40,123 nt of DNA from Candidatus Saccharimonadales bacterium (GTDB lineage Bacteria; Patescibacteriota; Saccharimonadia; Saccharimonadales; Saccharimonadaceae): contig JBBQTT010000001.1 in assembly GCA_038213035.1 (NCBI GenBank), positions 1-40,123 of the forward strand, given 5' to 3'. Both the position numbers and the translations under genes were made by a program. The notes beneath the pieces were generated by a model that saw nothing but the letters and a program-made list of their open reading frames with translations, searched no databases and had not been told where the DNA came from. The first letter of the stretch is position 1. The number at the start of each line of letters is the position of its first letter. Shown here piece after piece: positions 18,477 through 40,123 of this stretch.

Positions 18477-18553
18477 GGGCCAGTAGCTCAGCTGGTTAGA
18501 GCACCTGCCTCTTAAGTAGGTTGTCGAGGGTTCAAGTCCCTCCTGGCCCTCCA
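18477..18553 (+). tRNA. tRNA-Lys (anticodon CTT), CCA encoded
   Basis: Acceptor GGGCCAG/CTGGCCC, anticodon arm CCTGC-CTCTTAA-GTAGG, T arm GAGGG-TTCAAGT-CCCTC, then TCCA. Confidence 0.93.
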
Positions 18554-18806
18554 AATAAAATAATCATCCATAAGGATGGTTATTTTATTTGGATGCTACG
18601 CAGGGGGGACTTAAAGCTTCGACAACCCTTGGGTTGTCTGAGGGTGAGAACCGCCACGTCGGCGGTTCGCAAGGCCGGAAGCCGGATGACGAACGTCACC
18701 GACTGAGGCGGGGTCGCGGAAATTTGCAAAGCAAATTATCTGTGGCTAATTCCCCGCTGGCCCTCCAAATTAAATATCCATCCTTCAGGATGGTTATTTA
18801 TTTTGG
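18551..18806 (+). repeat. tRNA-Lys-linked module, copy C: hairpin T1, inverted T-arm copy, direct variable-loop/T-stem copy, structured core, second tRNA 3'-end copy, hairpin T2
   Basis: T1 lies at 18551-18592. The inverted copy AGGGGGGACTTAAAGCTTCGACAACCC (18602-18628) approximates the reverse complement of tRNA variable loop plus T arm. The direct copy GGTTGTCTGAGGGT lies at 18632-18645 and the core at 18642-18745. TTCCCCGCTGGCCCTCCA (18750-18767) matches the tRNA 3' end GTCCCTCCTGGCCCTCCA. T2 (18765-18806) is homologous to T1. Confidence 0.85.
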
Positions 18807-18911
18807 AAGTGCTAGGCGATTGAAGTTTCGACTTGTCGAGTTTGCATTTTTTACAACACTCACTCTGTCACATATACCCTTTGCAAGGTTTATCCTTGCA
18901 AAAAAGCATAG

Positions 18912-19146
18912 GCAAAATAATAAACCCATCGATGATGAGTTTATTATTTTGGTACACCCGGACGGATATCGCCAGCAAACTGTCTCCTCCGCTCATTCGC
19001 GAAAAAATGTAAACACTTTTTCGCTCCAATCACTACGCCGAACCTGCCGACCTTAGATTTTGTAGGCAAAATCCAAGTCGGCGGTTCAGATTCGTATCGG
19101 CATGACCAAAGAAAACAGACTAGATATACTAGTCTGTTTTCTTTGG
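18912..19146 (-). repeat. tRNA-Arg(TCG)-linked module with a different insert
   Basis: All parts are read in tRNA sense. T1 lies at 19106-19146. The long foldback GAACCGCCGAC...GTCGGCAGGTTC (19040-19087) has a right arm that copies tRNA variable loop, T stem and TTCG. An insert of about 70 nt follows. An exact 18-nt copy of the tRNA 3' end ATCCGTCCGGGTGTACCA lies at 18950-17967 in error-free form as 18950-18967, matching 19144-19161. T2 lies at about 18912-18952. Confidence 0.85.
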
Positions 19147-23526: not shown

Positions 23527-24057
23527 ATGATTAACAGAAACATCGATATCAAAAAATCACACGGGTTCACAATCGTAGAACTGCTGGTTGTTATCGTTGT
23601 CATCGGTATCTTGGCCGCTATTACGATTATTTCTTATACTGGTATCTTGCAAAGGGCCAATACTACCAAGGCCCTCAGTAACGCTCAATCAGCCCAAAAC
23701 GTAGCTGAAATCTATTTTTCAGATAAAACCGCATACCCAGTTACAACTGGCGACTTCAGTCGTGAAGACATAAGCGCTCAGTTGCCTTCAGGGGTAATAA
23801 TTGCACTTGGCCAAGGCGGTACGCTTGCAGGCGGATGGACTGGTGTCGAACCACTCAACCTACTGCCGGATTCAGATAAAACGATGACGGTAACATGGGC
23901 ATGTTCAGGTGGTACAGCAAGTGACAGCAACTGCGTTGGTGCAACTGGTGGCAAGATTACATATTGGGACTTTACTGGCACACCAGCCGTATCCACAAAC
24001 ATTCTTTACGTTGGTATGGCTAAATCAACTTCGACTTTTTTCACACCTTCTTCGTAA
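23527..24057 (+). CDS. Type IV pilin (PilA-like) paralog 1
   Basis: KKSHGFTIVELLVVIVVIGILAAITIISYTG. A GGGGGG SD lies upstream, and there is a C-terminal Cys pair. Confidence 0.9.
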   Translation: MINRNIDIKKSHGFTIVELLVVIVVIGILAAITIISYTGILQRANTTKALSNAQSAQNVAEIYFSDKTAYPVTTGDFSREDISAQLPSGVIIALGQGGTLAGGWTGVEPLNLLPDSDKTMTVTWACSGGTASDSNCVGATGGKITYWDFTGTPAVSTNILYVGMAKSTSTFFTPSS

Positions 24058-24082
24058 AACAACAGATTATAAATATAATAAA

Positions 24083-24113
24083 AATAGGACCTGCGAAAGT
24101 AGGCCCTATTTTG
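24083..24113 (+). terminator. Terminator hairpin after pilin 1
   Basis: AATAGGACCT-GCGAAAGT-AGGCCCTATT followed by TTGT, with one mismatch in the stem. Confidence 0.55.
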
Positions 24114-24120
24114 TATCACA

Positions 24121-24155
24121 TTGTGCTTGTGTTTATAAAATTAGTAAATTATAAT
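24121..24155 (+). promoter_or_regulatory. Candidate promoter of pilin gene 2
   Basis: TTGTGC at 24121-24126 and TTGTGT at 24127-24132. A 17-nt spacer leads to TATAAT at 24150-24155. Confidence 0.5.
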
Positions 24156-24198
24156 GTTATCAGTTCAGCTATATAAAAAATTAGGGAGGCAACAGAAC

Positions 24199-24759
24199 AT
24201 GACAAATACAACAAACGTAATCAAAAAAGAACGCGGTTTCACAATCGTAGAACTTTTGGTTGTTATCGTTGTTATCGGTATTTTGGCGGCGATTACTATC
24301 GTTTCTTATACTGGTATCACAGCCAAGGCAAATGCAGCTGCCACAAAACAAATGGCATCTAACATTATCGCTAAAGCCGGTATCTATCAAACAGAAGGTT
24401 CAACACTTAACTGGCCACTAACAGGTGCGCTTGCTATGTCAGCAACCGATTCATCATCGGCTATTACTGGTATAACGGTACAAAATGGCGCAACTTTAGC
24501 TGCTGCAAGTATGACAAAGATTTCATACCAGGTCTGTGGTACTACATCACAGACTGGTGCTGTTTTCACAGCACCAGCTAACTTAGCAGCTATTACTAAC
24601 CCAACCGGCGTTATTGTTGGATACTGGGATTACAGTCTAGCAACACCAGCACAAGCTACATTGTCCGCTGGAAACGCAGCCGCAGGTACAGCTGGACCAT
24701 ACATTTCAGGTGGAACAACATACGCAAACCTTGTTGCATGTTACTACACAGCTAGCTAG
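24199..24759 (+). CDS. Type IV pilin paralog 2
   Basis: A GGGAGG SD lies 8 nt before the ATG at 24199. The sequence is MTNTTNVIKKERGFTIVELLVVIVVIGILAAITIVSYTG, with GYWDY and a Cys pair near the C-terminus. Confidence 0.9.
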   Translation: MTNTTNVIKKERGFTIVELLVVIVVIGILAAITIVSYTGITAKANAAATKQMASNIIAKAGIYQTEGSTLNWPLTGALAMSATDSSSAITGITVQNGATLAAASMTKISYQVCGTTSQTGAVFTAPANLAAITNPTGVIVGYWDYSLATPAQATLSAGNAAAGTAGPYISGGTTYANLVACYYTAS

Positions 24760-24781
24760 TTAATATAACTAAATAGCTTTT

Positions 24782-24807
24782 AAACCCCCAGAAAACTGGG
24801 GGTTTAA
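24782..24807 (+). terminator. Terminator hairpin after pilin 2
   Basis: AAACCCCCAG-AAAA-CTGGGGGTTT. Confidence 0.7.
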
Positions 24808-24859
24808 ACATGCCAATACAATAATGCTATTAACTCATAATAAAAACTCACGATATCGC

Positions 24860-24888
24860 TTGTGCTAATAACGATGACATAGTATTAT
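24860..24888 (+). promoter_or_regulatory. Candidate promoter of pilin gene 3
   Basis: CGCTTGTGCTAAT contains TTGTGC at 24860-24865. A 17-nt spacer leads to TATTAT at 24883-24888. Confidence 0.5.
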
Positions 24889-24938
24889 ATTACTATTATA
24901 ATTATAATTAAATTACATTTCATAGGGGGCTTTAAAAA

Positions 24939-25433
24939 ATGATGTCAATCAACACAATTAATAACCAGAGCCACGGTCTTACGATCATAAAACATTCAGG
25001 AAAACTGAATCACGGTTTCACAATCGTAGAACTGCTGGTTGTTATCGTTGTTATCGGTATTTTGGCAGCGATTACTATCGTTTCTTATACTGGAATTACC
25101 GCCAAGGCTAATACAACTGCTAATAAAAATAATGCCAACAGCGTTCGTCGTGTAGCGCAAATAGTATATACTAATACTAGTTCATTCCCAGTAACAAACG
25201 CCACTTCAGCTACAGTAATTGCTGCATTGAATGCTAGCGATGCTAAGATCCCATCAGGTCTTACTGTAACAAACGGTGCCGTAGCATCAGGATCAGCTAT
25301 CACTTACGTACTTAAGGGTGCAACAGGCATCTGTGTTGGATACTGGGACTACAGCGGTGCTGGTTCAGCAGCTTGGTTGTACGCCGGTGACGCAACAACA
25401 GGTACCAGCGGTACACCTTCAACTTGCGCTTAA
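24939..25433 (+). CDS. Type IV pilin paralog 3
   Basis: GGGGGC SD. The sequence is NHGFTIVELLVVIVVIGILAAITIVSYTG. It is a close paralog of pilin 4 (SSFPVT.ATSATVIAALN.SDAKIPSGLTVT, GICVGYWDYS). Confidence 0.9.
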   Translation: MMSINTINNQSHGLTIIKHSGKLNHGFTIVELLVVIVVIGILAAITIVSYTGITAKANTTANKNNANSVRRVAQIVYTNTSSFPVTNATSATVIAALNASDAKIPSGLTVTNGAVASGSAITYVLKGATGICVGYWDYSGAGSAAWLYAGDATTGTSGTPSTCA

Positions 25434-25441
25434 CAAAACGC

Positions 25442-25475
25442 TTGTGCTAATGTAAATTTTGTAGTAAATTATAAA
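25442..25475 (+). promoter_or_regulatory. Candidate promoter of pilin gene 4
   Basis: CGCTTGTGCTAAT is identical to the box before pilin 3. The -10 is either TAAATT (25465-25470) or TATAAA (25470-25475). Confidence 0.4.
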
Positions 25476-25500
25476 CATAATAAATAATTAGGGGGCACAC

Positions 25501-25947
25501 ATGACACAAGGAAATATCAAAATCAAAGAACGCGGTTTCACAATCGTAGAACTTTTGGTTGTTATCGTTGTTATCGGTATTTTGGCAACGATTACTATCG
25601 TTTCTTATACTGGTATCACAGCTAAAGCAAATACAGCTGCTAACAAACAAAATGCAAGTAGTGTTATTGCTACTGCTCAAATCGTTTACGCTAATACAAG
25701 TTCATTCCCAGTAACAAGCGCTACTTCAGCTACAGTAATTGCTGCATTGAATTCTAGCGATGCTAAGATCCCATCAGGTCTTACTGTAACAAGTACATCT
25801 GTGACTTCAGGCACAGCTACTGCGCTTTCCTACCGCCAAAAAGCTAATACTGGTATCTGTGTTGGATACTGGGATTACAGCATTCCTGGCGTAGCTTACC
25901 TATTCGGTGGCGATGCAACAGCTGACAACGGTACAGCCTGTTCATAG
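25501..25947 (+). CDS. Type IV pilin paralog 4
   Basis: AGGGGG SD. The sequence is KERGFTIVELLVVIVVIGILATITIVSYTG. The 5' region of about 100 nt is near-identical to pilins 2 and 3. Confidence 0.9.
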   Translation: MTQGNIKIKERGFTIVELLVVIVVIGILATITIVSYTGITAKANTAANKQNASSVIATAQIVYANTSSFPVTSATSATVIAALNSSDAKIPSGLTVTSTSVTSGTATALSYRQKANTGICVGYWDYSIPGVAYLFGGDATADNGTACS

Positions 25948-27387: not shown

Positions 27388-28917
27388 ATGACAAACGATG
27401 ATTATAAAGTTAAAATCGGAACCTTAATTCAAGATACCAGACAGTCACGAGGACTAACCCAAGCCCAACTGGCAAAAGCCTTAAACACTAGTCAAAGTGC
27501 GATTAATCGCATCGAAAAGGGTGGACAAAATATCAGCCTTGAGATGTTGGCCCGTATTAGTGACGTTTTGTCAAGCGAACTTGTCACCTTGAATCAATCT
27601 GGAAAAATCAATTTCAGCATCAATGGCGGCAAAAAACTATCAGGCGATATTGAAGTTAAAACCAGCAAAAACGCTGCTGTTGGCCTACTTTGCGCCAGTT
27701 TATTGAACCATGGCACGACAACTTTGCGCCGAGTCGCCCATATCGAAGAAGTTAACCGTATTATTGAAGTATTACAAAGTATTGGCGTCAAAGTTAAATG
27801 GCTAAATGACAGAAACGACCTGGAGATTACTCCACCAGCCAGATTAAAACTGGATAGTATGGATATTAAAGCTGCCCAAAAGACCCGAACAGTAATTATG
27901 TTGCTGGGACCCCTGTTGCACCAATACAAAGAATTTAAACTACCATTTGCCGGTGGATGCAACCTGGGAACACGCACCGTTGAACCTCATATGACAGGCC
28001 TGGCGCCGTTTGGTTTGAACGTCGAAGCAACTGGTGAGTATTATCACGCTACTGTCACCAAAAAGGCCGTTACGCAGACTATCCTATTAACAGAACGTGG
28101 CGATACCACGACCGAAAACGTCATCATGGCGGCTGCCCTTTATGATGGTGAAATTACTATTCGAAACGCCAGCCCAAATTACATGGTCCAAGATTTATGC
28201 TTTTTCTTGCAAAAGTTAGGTGTCAAAATTGAAGGTATCGGCACGACTATTTTAAAGATTCACGGTGTTCGTAGCATTAATAAAAATGTCGAATACTATC
28301 CTAGTGAAGACCCAATCGAAGCTATGAGTTTAATTGCCGCCGGCATCGTCACCGATTCTGAAATAACAGTCAAACGAGCGCCGATTGAGTTTATCGAAAT
28401 CGAACTTGCCATCCTTAAAGGAATGGGTCTGCAATACGAAGTTAGTGCTGAATATCCAGCCCGAAACGGCGAAACCAGACTAGTTGATATCAAAATATTA
28501 CAATCAAAATTAAAATCCCCCAAAGACAAACTACACAGCATGCCGTTCCCTGGTGTTAATATGGACAACTTACCTTTCTTGGGCCTAATAGCTACCACTG
28601 CCCAGGGTCGGACCCTCGTACATGATTGGTCATACGAAAACCGTGCAATTTATTTTACAGAACTTAGCAAATTAAACGCCGGTATAGAATTAGTTGACCC
28701 ACACCGAGTTTATATAACTGGTCCAACCAAATGGAAACCTGCCGATATCGTTACTCCACCAGCTTTGCGTCCATCCGTTGTTATATTACTAGCCATGTTG
28801 GCCGCACCAGGGCGATCGATATTACGCGACGTATATTCAATAAATCGCGGCTATGAAGATTTTGCCAACCGATTAAATACGTTAGGCGCCGATATTGAAA
28901 CCTTGCGCGAGATTTAA
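27388..28917 (+). CDS. Fusion protein: N-terminal XRE-family HTH (aa about 10-65) plus a MurA-like UDP-GlcNAc 1-carboxyvinyltransferase (aa about 73-509)
   Basis: The HTH is RGLTQAQLAKALNTSQSAINRIEKGGQNISLEMLARI. MurA-like marks are KTSKNAA, LGPLL, FAGGCNLGTRTVEPH (Cys191 at the expected catalytic position) and YENR. It is a single uninterrupted ORF. Confidence 0.85.
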   Translation: MTNDDYKVKIGTLIQDTRQSRGLTQAQLAKALNTSQSAINRIEKGGQNISLEMLARISDVLSSELVTLNQSGKINFSINGGKKLSGDIEVKTSKNAAVGLLCASLLNHGTTTLRRVAHIEEVNRIIEVLQSIGVKVKWLNDRNDLEITPPARLKLDSMDIKAAQKTRTVIMLLGPLLHQYKEFKLPFAGGCNLGTRTVEPHMTGLAPFGLNVEATGEYYHATVTKKAVTQTILLTERGDTTTENVIMAAALYDGEITIRNASPNYMVQDLCFFLQKLGVKIEGIGTTILKIHGVRSINKNVEYYPSEDPIEAMSLIAAGIVTDSEITVKRAPIEFIEIELAILKGMGLQYEVSAEYPARNGETRLVDIKILQSKLKSPKDKLHSMPFPGVNMDNLPFLGLIATTAQGRTLVHDWSYENRAIYFTELSKLNAGIELVDPHRVYITGPTKWKPADIVTPPALRPSVVILLAMLAAPGRSILRDVYSINRGYEDFANRLNTLGADIETLREI

Positions 28918-29298: not shown

Positions 29299-29494
29299 GT
29301 GCTAATGACGGGGATTGGTCACGATAAAAATCATTCTAATTTTTTCGCGACCCCGCCTCAGTCGGTGACGTTCGTCATCCGGCTTCCGGCCTTGCGCAGT
29401 GCAGACTTGCACTGCTCACCCGCTACCACCGCGGGTTCAATACCCGTAACGTTCCAAATAAAAAAGAAGGCATAAAGCCTTCATTTTTATTTGG
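29299..29494 (-). repeat. tRNA-His-linked module, copy D
   Basis: All parts are read in tRNA sense. T1 lies at 29454-29494. The inverted T-arm copy ACGGGTATTGAACCCGC lies at 29431-29447. The direct copy GGTAGCGGGT lies at 29418-29427 and the core at 29318-29421. CAATCCCCGTCATT (29304-29317) equals the tRNA-His T-loop/acceptor segment at 29499-29512. Confidence 0.85.
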
Positions 29495-29569
29495 GGCGAA
29501 TGACGGGGATTGAACCCGCTACCTTCGGAACCACAACCCGACGCTCTAACCAGATGAGCTACATTCGCC
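29492..29569 (-). tRNA. tRNA-His (anticodon GTG) with encoded G-1 and CCA
   Basis: G-1 plus acceptor GCGAATG/CATTCGC, discriminator C, anticodon arm TCGGG-TTGTGGT-TCCGA, T arm GCGGG-TTCAATC-CCCGT. An upstream TGtTACAAT forms an extended -10. Confidence 0.92.
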
Positions 29570-29673: not shown

Positions 29674-29748
29674 GCGGGCGTCGTATAAAGGCTAATATGT
29701 CTGCCTTCCAAGCAAACGATGAGAGTTCGATTCTCTCCGCCCGCACCA
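29674..29748 (+). tRNA. tRNA-Gly (anticodon TCC), CCA encoded
   Basis: Acceptor GCGGGCG/CGCCCGC, anticodon arm TCTGC-CTTCCAA-GCAAA (one C-A mismatch), T arm GAGAG-TTCGATT-CTCTC, then ACCA. Confidence 0.85.
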
Positions 29749-29980
29749 AAGAAAAAAGTTGTGTCCCTGGATACAACTTTTTTCTTTGGTATGTGTTGGT
29801 GAATCGAACTCTCATCGACGATTCGCTGTCCAGCGAAGAGTCAGATGAGAGTTCGTGAAGCGCCGTGCAGCAAAATCAGTTTACTTATTTTGCCAACAAG
29901 CGAAAATAGGGAATGAAATGACCGCCTTCTCTCCGCCCACACCAAAGAAAAAGAGATTCGTTGAATCTCTTTTTCTATGG
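29746..29980 (+). repeat. tRNA-Gly-linked module with a different insert
   Basis: T1 lies at 29746-29789. The inverted copy GAATCGAACTCTCATCG (29801-29817) is the perfect reverse complement of the tRNA segment CGATGAGAGTTCGATTC. The direct copy GATGAGAGTTCG lies at 29844-29855 and a 71-nt insert at 29856-29926. TTCTCTCCGCCCACACCA (29927-29944) matches the tRNA sequence TTCTCTCCGCCCGCACCA. T2 lies at 29942-29980. Confidence 0.85.
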
Positions 29981-31163: not shown

Positions 31164-31239
31164 GCCCTGGTAGCTCAGTGGATAGAGCAGAGGACTTCTA
31201 AGCCTAAGGTCGTTGGTTCAATTCCAACCCAGGGTACCA
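31164..31239 (+). tRNA. tRNA-Arg (anticodon TCT), CCA encoded
   Basis: Acceptor GCCCTGG/CCAGGGT, D arm GCTC-AGTGGATA-GAGC, T arm GTTGG-TTCAATT-CCAAC. The anticodon loop is CTTCTAA, but the anticodon stem is weak (GAGGA/GCCTA, only 3 central pairs). Confidence 0.78.
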
Positions 31240-31329
31240 AAATAAAATAATCAGCCAATGGGTTGATTATTTTATTTTGATTCCAGGGATTGGATTGAAC
31301 CAACGACCGCCTGACAACCCAGGGTACTA
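31237..31329 (+). repeat. tRNA-Arg(TCT)-linked minimal module (no long insert)
   Basis: T1 lies at 31237-31279. The inverted T-arm copy GGGATTGGATTGAACCAACGACC (31286-31308) approximates the reverse complement of the tRNA segment GGTCGTTGGTTCAATTCCAACCC. After GCCTGAC comes AACCCAGGGTAC (31316-31327), which equals the tRNA 3' end at 31226-31237. Confidence 0.75.
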
Positions 31330-38936: not shown

Positions 38937-39012
38937 CGGGGTGTGGCGCAGTTGATAGCGCGCTCGGTTTGGGACCGAGAGGTCGAAGGTTTGAGTCCTT
39001 TCACCCCGACCA
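38937..39012 (+). tRNA. tRNA-Pro (anticodon TGG), CCA encoded
   Basis: Acceptor CGGGGTG/CACCCCG, anticodon arm CTCGG-TTTGGGA-CCGAG, T arm GAAGG-TTTGAGT-CCTTT, then ACCA. A TATAAT lies at 38914-38919. Confidence 0.9.
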
Positions 39013-40123
39013 AGAAGTATTTTCGCTTAAATCCACCATCAAGTCGTATGGTGGATTTAGCTTTATAACAGATATAAAGTCGTCATTTGCTCGGAGGTTC
39101 AACACCACCTCACGATAGACTAAATCTTCTTCGACCACATCGGTCGTTTTTAGTATCGTTTCCAGATACGAATTGATGAGTTCAACAAATTCTTCACGAG
39201 TCGGCAATGCGTTACTCAATCGTATCTTTTCTTCCTCTAATTTAGCGATGAGGTCTTCAATGGAGATGATTTGAGCTTGATGAAAATCTAATTTGCCGTT
39301 GTGGTATTGTTTGTATTCAACAGGGTTGGATACTTGGAAATTCTGATATTTTGAGTAGTAATCTCTCTGGAGTTTTAGGTCATTTTTAGCATCTGCTAGC
39401 TTACGCCTGACAGTCGCTCGCTTAACGACTACATCACTCTCTATGCGGTCTATATATCGCTTATGAGCTTCACCTACATTTTCCGTAAGATGTCTTAGAG
39501 TCCACTCGATATGAGCATTTACAAATTTAGCTCTAATCCCTTTGGGTAGTTTGTGGCCATACTTCAGAATAGCTTCCTTATCATTATGGCGAATACACTC
39601 TTTATTGCGACAATAAAAGCTAAATAGCCATTTGCCCTTATTTTTACCACGCTGAAGCTTGGTTCGCTGGAACGTCATAACCCTATCGCAGAAATCACAA
39701 ATGACTTTTTCTCGTAGCAATCCAAACTCTAGCCGTTGTGCTACATTGCCACGACCTCTAAATTCTTTATCAAAACTACTCGCTATATTGCGACCAAGCG
39801 TTATAAATTCGTCTGGTGTTATCAGTGGCAAGAAGTTGTACTGGTCGTTTAAGTTAGAGATGTTATCACCGTGCTTATAAACGCCAGTGTAAAACTCGTC
39901 TGTCAGAAAATCCGACACCATATTCTTAGTCATTTTAACTAGCTTATACTCGTCCTGTTCGGTCTTACGAACGCTCAAATGAGAATCGTTAAGGAAGTCG
40001 GCTATATATTCACCGGTAGCTCGGTCATTTAGTCTCATCAGGACGGCTTTACGCAGTAATTGCCAATTATGACTATCTGGCATATAGTAGCCTGTCGCAG
40101 AGTCCTTATAGTAGCCTTTTTTG
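39001..40123 (-). CDS. Large serine recombinase (integrase), C-terminal portion; the 5' end lies outside the window
   Basis: The reading frame is open to the window edge. It has a recombinase-domain-like region, a zinc-ribbon CDFCDRVMTF...YCRNKECIRH, and a coiled-coil-rich C-terminus. The stop codon lies inside the 3' end of tRNA-Pro. Confidence 0.75.
   Translation of the reverse strand, partial: KKGYYKDSATGYYMPDSHNWQLLRKAVLMRLNDRATGEYIADFLNDSHLSVRKTEQDEYKLVKMTKNMVSDFLTDEFYTGVYKHGDNISNLNDQYNFLPLITPDEFITLGRNIASSFDKEFRGRGNVAQRLEFGLLREKVICDFCDRVMTFQRTKLQRGKNKGKWLFSFYCRNKECIRHNDKEAILKYGHKLPKGIRAKFVNAHIEWTLRHLTENVGEAHKRYIDRIESDVVVKRATVRRKLADAKNDLKLQRDYYSKYQNFQVSNPVEYKQYHNGKLDFHQAQIISIEDLIAKLEEEKIRLSNALPTREEFVELINSYLETILKTTDVVEEDLVYREVVLNLRANDDFISVIKLNPPYDLMVDLSENTSWSG

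Follow-up and report, generated by a model that had tools for sequence, protein, structure and literature searches.

R2 elements and their SIDE relatives in insects insert site-specifically into a conserved structural-RNA gene, with a small and constant loss of target. In R2 this loss is a fixed 2 nucleotides (nt), arising from staggered cleavage with target-primed synthesis, and the R2 of Bombyx makes a target deletion of 2 bp. SIDE are short derivatives of R2 that lack an open reading frame (ORF) and keep only the structured RNA ends (PMC3414825). Here we describe an element of about 101 nt, present in four copies in a 40,123-nt stretch of Candidatus Saccharimonadales DNA (contig JBBQTT010000001.1, positions 1 to 40,123; hereafter the window), which shares with R2 and SIDE both the site-specific placement in a conserved structural-RNA gene and the small constant loss, here 2 nt at 85 of 87 junctions. 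Co-transcription of R2 elements with their host gene is a further point of likeness. However, R2 is eukaryotic, has an autonomous partner that encodes reverse transcriptase and carries a 5′ ribozyme like that of hepatitis delta virus (HDV), whereas the present element lies in bacterial tRNA loops, with no reverse transcriptase gene in the neighbourhoods of its copies and no HDV-like match.

The PATEs of the insertion sequence (IS) family IS200/IS605 and the REP and REPIN elements are, like the element described here, small, ORF-less and strand-specific, with hairpins at both ends and neither inverted terminal repeats nor target duplication; they are moved in trans and favour hairpins in single-stranded DNA. 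Unlike it, they use a fixed target of 4-5 nt without loss of bases and have no conserved three-way-junction centre. They co-occur with TnpA or RAYT genes, of which none appears among the recurrent ORF families around the present copies. Integron attC sites are likewise recognised as a folded single strand in which structure rather than sequence is conserved, and they recombine at G|TT, but an attC is a single imperfect hairpin (R''-L''/L'-R') on a gene cassette and keeps the TT, whereas our element has three hairpins, no cassette ORF and a 2-nt loss. Dictyostelium TRE5 and TRE3 and yeast Ty3 also gather on either side of tRNA genes, a short and fixed distance away; these target RNA polymerase III complexes and insert outside the tRNA, while our element lies inside tRNA-derived sequence and owes its distance to local duplication. 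The mobile bulge-helix-bulge tRNA introns of Thermoproteales resemble it as short inserts in D, anticodon and T loops that spread between tRNA genes; they are spliced by the tRNA endonuclease and their genes are functional, in contrast to the truncated bacterial pseudogenes found here, which lack 2 nt. Theta and minimal HDV-like ribozymes are small structured RNAs directly flanking phage tRNA genes (PMC10879173). These ribozymes fold as nested double pseudoknots and serve in phages to process the 3′ ends of tRNAs, whereas the element forms three local hairpins and has no copy on viral contigs. Set against each family considered, it lacks at least one of the defining features tested, and it is unlike the described classes of mobile element; its functional likeness is strongest to site-specific non-autonomous elements, namely R2 SIDEs, IS200/IS605 PATEs and attC-like folded substrates. 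A search of the literature, with the sequence string itself included as a query, found no description of the element.

A three-hairpin fold upheld by compensatory change

The window copies belong to a family that numbers hundreds in Saccharibacteria. One genome per species was scanned with a degenerate pattern made from the invariant part of the element, and this yielded 60 loci; 53 of them are in metagenome-assembled genomes (MAGs) of Saccharibacteria/Saccharimonadales, often several per genome, and the other 7 are chance matches. A scan of metagenomes contributed at least 124 further copies. The 184 copies analysed in all come essentially entirely from Saccharibacteria, and some MAGs hold at least 9-14; the source genome of the window is itself absent among the scan matches. 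In other phyla, seven genome-scan and four metagenome-scan matches fell within a GC-rich coding gene (…YSRKAGEWIPN…) and were discarded as false positives (loci with this coding motif are L008, L010, L029, L048, L049, L057, L081, L116, L128 and L142).

The core of each copy is a module of about 101 nt, TGAG…GTGAC, that contains no genes and folds into three hairpins, the first nucleotide being paired in P1 and the last in P4. The element is a compact three-way junction with exact ends, TGAR…GYGRC. P1 is a 10-bp hairpin that starts at the first nucleotide. The second hairpin (P2/P3) is long and interrupted, GCC..AG.CGG.TGAC[GAAC]GTCA.CCG.CT..GGC, and within it AGCC, GCCT and GCCC covary with GACTG, AAGCG and GAGCG, and TGAC with GTCA. 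P4 has a GC-rich base (GTCGCGG/CTGTGAC) and an AT-rich top, and closes at the last nucleotide. Variants of P1, P2/P3 and P4 are found in all combinations among the copies. The original prediction, made from the four window copies, had described the variants of P1, the TTGC-GAAC-GCAA form of P3 in copy B, the AT-rich P4 stems and a 50-nt block identical in copy C (18669-18718) and copy D (29346-29395), and all of these are present. It had also proposed a separate P2 hairpin (CCGG/CCGG), which does not covary, P2 and P3 forming together the one long hairpin; and while it recognised the AT-rich part of P4, it missed the GC-rich base.

This fold is upheld by compensatory change. Among 52 distinct genome copies, 97.3% of cells are paired, double changes are seen in 24 of the 36 pairs and none of 500 shuffles was as good; when the partners were slid by 1-3 columns, pairing reached only 28-49%. 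A further 113 distinct metagenome copies, which were not used for building the covariance model and are independent of the first set, gave 98.2% of cells paired and double changes in 34 of the 36 pairs. The earlier proposal of a structured element under selection for its fold is thus borne out by strong covariation in both sets and by the failure of shuffled and slid controls. Individually, the complete window copies (B, C and D) fold into the common three hairpins (z from -4.4 to -4.8; 0 of 200 shuffles equally stable), and for copy C the single-sequence minimum free energy (MFE) fold is the covariation structure.

Maintenance of the fold concerns the tRNA-sense strand only. In that sense the complete window copies give well-defined ensembles (MFE frequency 0.28-0.43), while their antisense strands are 3-6.5 kcal/mol weaker and have ill-defined folds. 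One pair in P4 is G•U in 49 of the 52 genome copies and 101 of the 113 metagenome copies, and pair types overall include 75 G•U against 8 A•C. Because this G•U pair is conserved and G•U far exceeds A•C, the folded strand is the one that reads in the sense of the tRNA. The same strand had been weakly favoured before from a G:T pair within P2; the call stands, and the P2 argument does not.

The original prediction had named no known RNA family for the core, and the core matches no Rfam family. Rfam 15 at its gathering threshold found only seven tRNAs in the whole window, and a permissive Rfam scan of 18540-18830 produced matches on terminators alone, the core being without any, whether to hammerhead, HDV-like, twister, pistol, hatchet, group I or II intron, tmRNA or other families. 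Nor was a match to an IS family found, and copies with supported covariation lie in many genomes. Three other folds were considered and rejected. The apparent boxes of a Box C/D or K-turn reading of GGAUGA…CUGA covary as stem positions, the motifs and nesting required of a hammerhead or HDV-like fold are absent, and a pairing of the 5′ GGTGA with an internal TCACC is lost in the TTGC/GCAA variant.

Junctions within truncated tRNA copies

The copies had been described as lying beside tRNA genes, all in the orientation of the neighbouring tRNA. Both statements are correct, and the first understates the arrangement, as every one of them lies within an incomplete duplicate of the adjoining tRNA. 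The flanks are pieces of the neighbouring tRNA, and nearly all copies sit in a truncated duplicate that adjoins the intact gene; an intact tRNA on the same strand is found within 500 nt of 135 of the 184 copies, with 25 isoacceptors covered. In the downstream class (90 copies, a median of 81 nt after the intact tRNA), the tRNA and its terminator come first; an inverted T-arm copy often follows, and then about 9-12 nt of the T-stem 5′ strand, the element, and the remaining 3′ end of the tRNA. In the upstream class (45 copies, a median of 57 nt before the intact tRNA), a promoter and a tRNA 5′ fragment precede the element, which is followed by 7-28 nt of further tRNA that a short inverted repeat closes; after this come a diverged promoter copy and the intact tRNA.

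At the junctions, tRNA homology reaches the element, skips exactly 2 nt and resumes; this was seen at 27 of 27 clear junctions and then at 85 of 87 in a larger set. The replaced dinucleotide is TT in 76 of these 87, corresponding to T54-Ψ55 of the T-loop, to the two residues after G18G19 or to positions 38-39, and the dinucleotide that precedes the element is GG in 78 and AG in 9. The commonest site is GG|TT of the T-loop, and others lie in the D-arm, the anticodon arm (tRNA-Leu 37/38) and the acceptor. The length of the element is 100-103 nt in 152 of 163 copies. It has no terminal inverted repeats (the 5′ TGAGAAC… is unrelated to the 3′ reverse complement GTCACGA… in the consensus of 52), and there is no target-site duplication, 2 nt being lost instead; both hallmarks of a MITE derived from a DDE transposase are lacking. 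What had been put forward as a stand-alone non-coding RNA gene beside tRNAs is an exact-ended insertion that replaces 2 nt inside truncated tRNA copies; the alternative offered with it, in which a recombinase or transposase acts on a folded single strand, comes close to the reading best supported here.

Copy C (18645-18746, + strand) has the downstream-class arrangement. The functional gene is the intact tRNA-Lys(CTT) (18477-18553, +; ARAGORN and Rfam), with its terminator T1 at 18551-18592 (+). An upstream complement, GACAACCC (18621-18628, +), pairs with the 5′ flank 'b' of the copy (18632-18644, +), which duplicates tRNA-Lys nt 43-54, that is, the variable loop and T-stem 5′ strand with GG at the end. 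The element itself is a complete family-1 copy, TGAG…GTGGC, of 102 nt (covariance model 112.4 bits; z = -4.53), with P1 at 18645-18672, the long P2/P3 hairpin at 18674-18709 and P4 at 18713-18746. The 3′ flank 'a' (18747-18767, +) consists of the remaining tRNA-Lys T-loop, the T-stem 3′ strand, the acceptor 3′ strand and CCA, and runs into a duplicated terminator, T2 (18765-18806, +), found by a terminator scan; together, flank 'a' and T2 (18747-18806) are 83% identical to 18534-18593 (direct-repeat family D3). Where tRNA-Lys reads GGTTGTCGAGGG-TT-CAAGTCCCTCCTGGCCCTCCA, copy C reads GGTTGTCTGAGGG-[element]-TAATTCCCCGCTGGCCCTCCA, followed by the second terminator copy.

Copies A and D split the T-arms of tRNA-Glu and tRNA-His as copy C splits that of tRNA-Lys. 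Upstream of copy D are the intact tRNA-His(GTG) (29492-29568, -; ARAGORN and Rfam), its bidirectional terminator (about 29453-29491, -) and an inverted tRNA-His T-arm, ACGGGTATTGAACCCGC (29431-29447, -), which precedes the 'b' piece GGTAGCGGG (29419-29427, -; equal to tRNA-His nt 46-54). Copy D is a complete family-1 element of 101 nt (29318-29418, -; P1 subtype GCAGTGC/GCACTGC; 113.8 bits; z = -4.84), and its 3′ flank 'a', CAATCCCCGTCATTAGC (29301-29317, -), matches tRNA-His nt 57-73 at 16 of 17 positions, with the TT of the T-loop gone. The intact tRNA-Glu(TTC) (136-210, -; ARAGORN and Rfam) has copy B upstream and copy A downstream. Copy A (1-49, -) runs off the window, which contains only the 5′ 48 nt of this family-1 element; it matches covariance model positions 1-48 and is flagged as 3′-truncated. 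On its 5′ side is the 'b' piece TTCAATCCGGG (50-60, -), from the variable loop and T-stem 5′ strand of tRNA-Glu, and beside it an inverted tRNA-Glu T-arm (65-89, -; inverted repeat I5). Copy B (279-380, -), a complete family-1 element of 102 nt (109.9 bits; z = -4.39), carries the compensated P2/P3 variants GCCT/AAGCG and TTGC/GCAA and has an upstream-class context. A tRNA-type extended -10 promoter (448→420, -; TAGCCA-17-TACAAT with TG, from a promoter scan) is followed by a pseudo-tRNA-Glu 5′ fragment, GGTCTATCGTCGTAATGG (381-398, -), which equals tRNA-Glu nt 1-18 and ends at G18G19 in the D-loop; the 3′ flank (259-278, -) is tRNA-Glu nt 21-31 (AGGACACCAGG) and then its own complement, giving the hairpin CAGGACA-CCAGGGC-TGTCCTG. 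The locations first given for the four copies were right; the exact ends were not, the covariance model showing that 3-9 nt of flank had been included. In all, six of the seven window tRNA genes have a spare fragment that bears an insert or is a remnant.

Spare fragments without an insert were also seen. After tRNA-Arg(TCT) and its terminator, window positions 31283-31327 (+) hold an inverted T-arm copy and a direct 3′ fragment, CAACCCAGGGTAC; this looks like the deletion remnant of a unit that three other loci (L027, L037 and L052) carry at tRNA-Arg(TCT). In another locus (L060), a 5′-truncated tRNA-Arg duplicate lies about 90-150 nt downstream of tRNA-Arg(TCG) (1777-1853), and its T-loop reads GGGGG-TC-CAAGT; the change of TT to TC, which equals the first and last bases of the element, may be a coincidence or an excision footprint and is left uninterpreted. 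The tRNA terminators at 18551-18592, 29453-29491, 29746-29789 and 31237-31279 are long AT-rich palindromes that start inside the CCA end (CCAAATAAAA…TTTTATTTGG), so that the 3′ end of a terminated transcript would pair right beside the acceptor end. Several window tRNA terminators are enlarged into bigger palindromes by inverted T-arm copies.

Probable mobility and competing explanations

We consider it probable that the core is a mobile element, non-autonomous and site-specific, whose movement depends on its fold and which persists only in spare tRNA fragments. One element is nested in another: in L015, an 87-nt element of a sister family, 1b, lies inside a family-1 element directly after GGCGGG, with GT replaced. 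Targets outside sense-strand tRNA sequence are used as well. The loop of the same long non-tRNA hairpin holds an element on opposite strands in L137 and L011 versus L079, each after G(G); in L017 and L119 the element follows GGGGG in a tRNA-Leu copy, where it occupies the T-arm in antisense; and in L149, L164 and L074 it follows GGCGG in a hairpin loop of a conserved, structured-looking region for which, as for the other non-tRNA hosts (L079, L137), Rfam gives no identity, this region being unmatched even in permissive mode. The latter host region (about 1100-1500 in L149) is GC-rich and conserved, …CACGGGTGGCGTCCGGCGG | AGCACCCG…GGGGCGGACCGGGCGACAGGACCCGC, and may be an unannotated RNA. Arrays occur too. 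In L020 the first two of three promoter and tRNA-Glu units are interrupted, at different positions, and in L100 a tRNA-Ile is followed by three interrupted 3′ fragments with homologous flanks and different core subtypes. A locus syntenic with the window tRNA-His locus (L071) is without the entire block from the inverted T-arm to CAATCCCCGT, and other tRNAs of the same types, compared alongside it, show clean flanks.

Family 1b (about 87 nt) shares with family 1 the ends and junction nucleotides, TGAR-P1-YGCAAGG … GGGG-TCGCG-loop-CGTGAC, and likewise replaces 2 nt after GG; its central hairpin is another one, and its P4 is minimal. Its members are found at L002:4759-4847, L006:3911-3998, L034:7556-7644, L051:4873-4958, L009:2120-2206, L027:1100-1185 and L015:7379-7464; at the tRNA-His site of L027, which is orthologous to that of copy D, a 1b element takes the place of copy D. 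A second, unrelated insert family was also observed. It comprises an AT-rich hairpin of about 71-100 nt with a GTTTAC loop and a conserved GCGAATGAGCGGAGGAG, and in the window it occurs at 29856-29926 (+) and 18968-19038 (-), in the T-loops of spare tRNA-Gly(TCC) and tRNA-Arg(TCG) fragments, after GGTTCG. The layout, tRNA-terminator-inverted piece-b-insert-a, is that of the main element, and further examples lie in other genomes at orthologous and other tRNAs, sometimes reversed (L044, L027, L014, L035, L040, L100 and L001). A 16-nt mini-hairpin, TTCGCYGTNCRGCGAA, is an insert in D-loops of pseudo-tRNA-Glu (L020 and L002) and is present in the window at 29812-29827, in the loop region of the tRNA-Gly spare unit.

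Copies are better preserved than their surroundings. In the downstream class, conservation is 98% over 21 core positions that the search pattern did not cover, whereas the 21 nt of tRNA-derived flank beside them match the intact tRNA at 72%, or at 55% in the older half. Decayed copies are very rare, and the distribution of covariance model scores is bimodal. Selection for mobility, function in situ, gene conversion and fast loss of dead copies could each contribute to this upkeep.

Two separate processes are indicated, since the junction between element and target is invariant while the duplication joint varies. For the first, an enzyme encoded elsewhere would recognise the folded single strand and a G-ending motif (RG) exposed in a hairpin loop; the same enzyme would cut twice, 2 nt apart, and then join the element in. 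As to the second, the tRNA genes of these genomes of about 1 Mb are essential and virtually single-copy, so that insertions would be seen only where they land in, or are rescued by, partial tandem duplicates. Such a duplication filter would account for the upstream class, the downstream class and the fossil arrays, and fold-back template switching in replication or repair could have produced both the terminator-centred palindromes and the short inverted stretches where the duplications join. If the element is mobile, we tentatively favour, by analogy with R2 and by a narrow margin over transposition of single-stranded DNA, an RNA-derived copy that would be inserted by target-primed synthesis.

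Several points weigh against a mobile element. To our knowledge, the bacterial DDE, HUH, tyrosine and serine chemistries leave duplications or no change, and a precise 2-nt loss matches none of them. No mobilising enzyme was found near the copies, and the mechanism is read from the junctions alone. The polymorphism at L071 looks like a deletion rather than an empty target, no insertion into a naive site having been caught, and the spare fragments may either precede insertion or arise with it, the one insert-free spare seen being that of L060. Copies were collected by an exact 21-base pattern, which inflates their apparent conservation, and all sequences are MAGs or metagenome contigs, in which repeats may be assembled wrongly. 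Finally, an RNA useful to the host would also account for how strongly the central hairpin is conserved and for the tRNA-type promoters and terminators that surround copies.

A host-beneficial family of small RNA genes, with the three-way-junction RNA as its product, would be expressed from duplicated tRNA promoters in the upstream class or by read-through to duplicated terminators in the downstream class, with the flanks aiding processing or stability. The strong covariation, the conserved G•U pair, the invariant junction nucleotides and the well-defined folds of the sense strand alone all agree with such a product, as do the much better preservation of copies than of flanks, the scarcity of decayed copies, the promoter that precedes copy B and other upstream-class copies, and the terminators that bracket the downstream-class ones. 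Nevertheless, a family with one function needs no 10-20 copies at differing tRNAs in different genomes, and selection for transposition competence alone would give the same covariation. Since a host RNA would also leave unexplained the exact 2-nt replacement, the nesting, the placement in a hairpin on either strand and in an antisense T-arm, and the existence of sister families with another central domain and the same ends, we regard it as quite improbable. A remnant of a single-stranded DNA transposon of IS200/IS605 (PATE), REPIN or attC type, whose folded top strand is moved by an HUH or tyrosine enzyme, would fit with the hairpins at both ends without terminal inverted repeats or target duplication, with orientation-specific insertion 3′ of a short motif, and with hairpin-loop targets on either strand; DNA hairpins also tolerate G•T pairs. 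We still judge it unlikely, as IS200/IS605 leaves the target intact and has a defined 4-5-nt target, whereas here only RG is common and 2 nt are lost; the cleavage points are at helix ends and not at a distance from the hairpins; and the invariant central domain has no role in such chemistry. In addition, attC is a single imperfect hairpin that keeps the TT when recombining at G|TT, and genes for TnpA, TnpB and RAYT are absent among the recurrent ORF families of 170 loci.

Duplicated tRNA 3′ fragments are the usual footprint of islands that integrate into tRNA genes, and T-loops and anticodon loops are integrase crossover sites. The tRNA 3′ fragments duplicated downstream of intact tRNAs could accordingly be scars of such islands, the core being an attP arm left after deletion of a phage or integrative element. 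The anatomy of the junctions contradicts this: the T-arm halves of an attR are contiguous, whereas here a 101-nt core lies between them and two bases are gone. The same module is present in D-arms, acceptor stems, non-tRNA hairpins and another element, there is no integrase nearby and no viral copy, and the sole recombinase-like ORF of the window adjoins tRNA-Pro, which has no copy; we give this origin almost no credence. We think it just as remote that the element is a tRNA intron, self-splicing or enzyme-spliced, in interrupted genes that still function. Its place in tRNA loops (including tRNA-Leu 37/38), its pronounced structure and its sense orientation would be those of an intron, but T54 and Ψ55 are missing in the T-loop cases, so that excision cannot restore the tRNA. 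In each host copy examined one side of the tRNA is cut off, and most such copies have an intact gene next to them; moreover, 101 nt in three local hairpins is too small for a group I or II intron and has no catalytic core of either kind (P3-P9 with a G-binding site, or domains I-VI with domain V), and Rfam gives no match. A more far-reaching version of the mobile element is that the module is the RNA or folded-strand component of an undescribed insertion machinery of the Candidate Phyla Radiation (CPR), in which case the tRNA arrays would be a chronological record of invasions and rescues. Such machinery might be a bacterial retroelement resembling a short interspersed element (SINE), using R2-style target-primed synthesis, or a catalytic RNA that helps its own insertion after G in exposed loops. 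We hold this broader proposal to be a long shot.

Gene neighbourhood and implications

The 20 window ORFs searched against Pfam gave only housekeeping families, and those around the copies include MurB, pilins, SHMT, a MurA-like protein, a hydrolase and similar proteins. Among 845 ORFs clustered from 170 element-centred loci, the recurrent families are all housekeeping. No transposase, integrase, reverse transcriptase, TnpA, TnpB or RAYT was found among the window neighbours or the recurrent families of these loci; for a cognate TnpA (HUH) the negative covers these loci. Collections of viral sequences contained no real copy, giving nothing or short chance matches, and four loci from them (L181-L184) are without a covariance model match.

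Three features of the surrounding genes were noted in passing. A 360-aa ORF at 39001-40083 (-) contains only the 'Recombinase' domain (PF07508) of large serine recombinases, without the N-terminal resolvase domain, and overlaps the 3′ end of tRNA-Pro (38937-39012), the sole window tRNA without a spare fragment; the ORF may be the truncated integrase of an island that runs off the window. A run of small ORFs occupies 23527-25947 (+); of these, 23527-24057 was tested and carries a pilin methylation motif at its N-terminus. Long internal direct repeats of families D1 and D2 in this region, 63-89% identical and 520-780 nt apart, suggest that a pilin-like gene cluster was duplicated in tandem. The ORF at 27388-28917 (+) encodes a protein of the MurA/EPSP-synthase family with an N-terminal HTH_3 (Cro/C1) domain, a fusion that recurs in a cluster of eight loci.

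On the mobile-element reading, the units described here would confront genome annotation with pseudo-tRNA fragments, with promoters and terminators in duplicate and with spurious ORFs, 18589-19056 among them. If that reading is true, the family would also be a bacterial mobile element of a new type, whose hallmarks are a three-way-junction fold and the precise replacement of two bases after GG in tRNA loops, and it would imply an enzyme not yet known, or ribozyme-assisted chemistry, with site-specific insertion activity. It would also offer a natural system in which lethal insertions into essential single-copy genes are survived by means of local duplication, and it would mean that the tRNA loci of the ultra-small genomes of Saccharibacteria, which have few conventional mobile elements, have been heavily remodelled.

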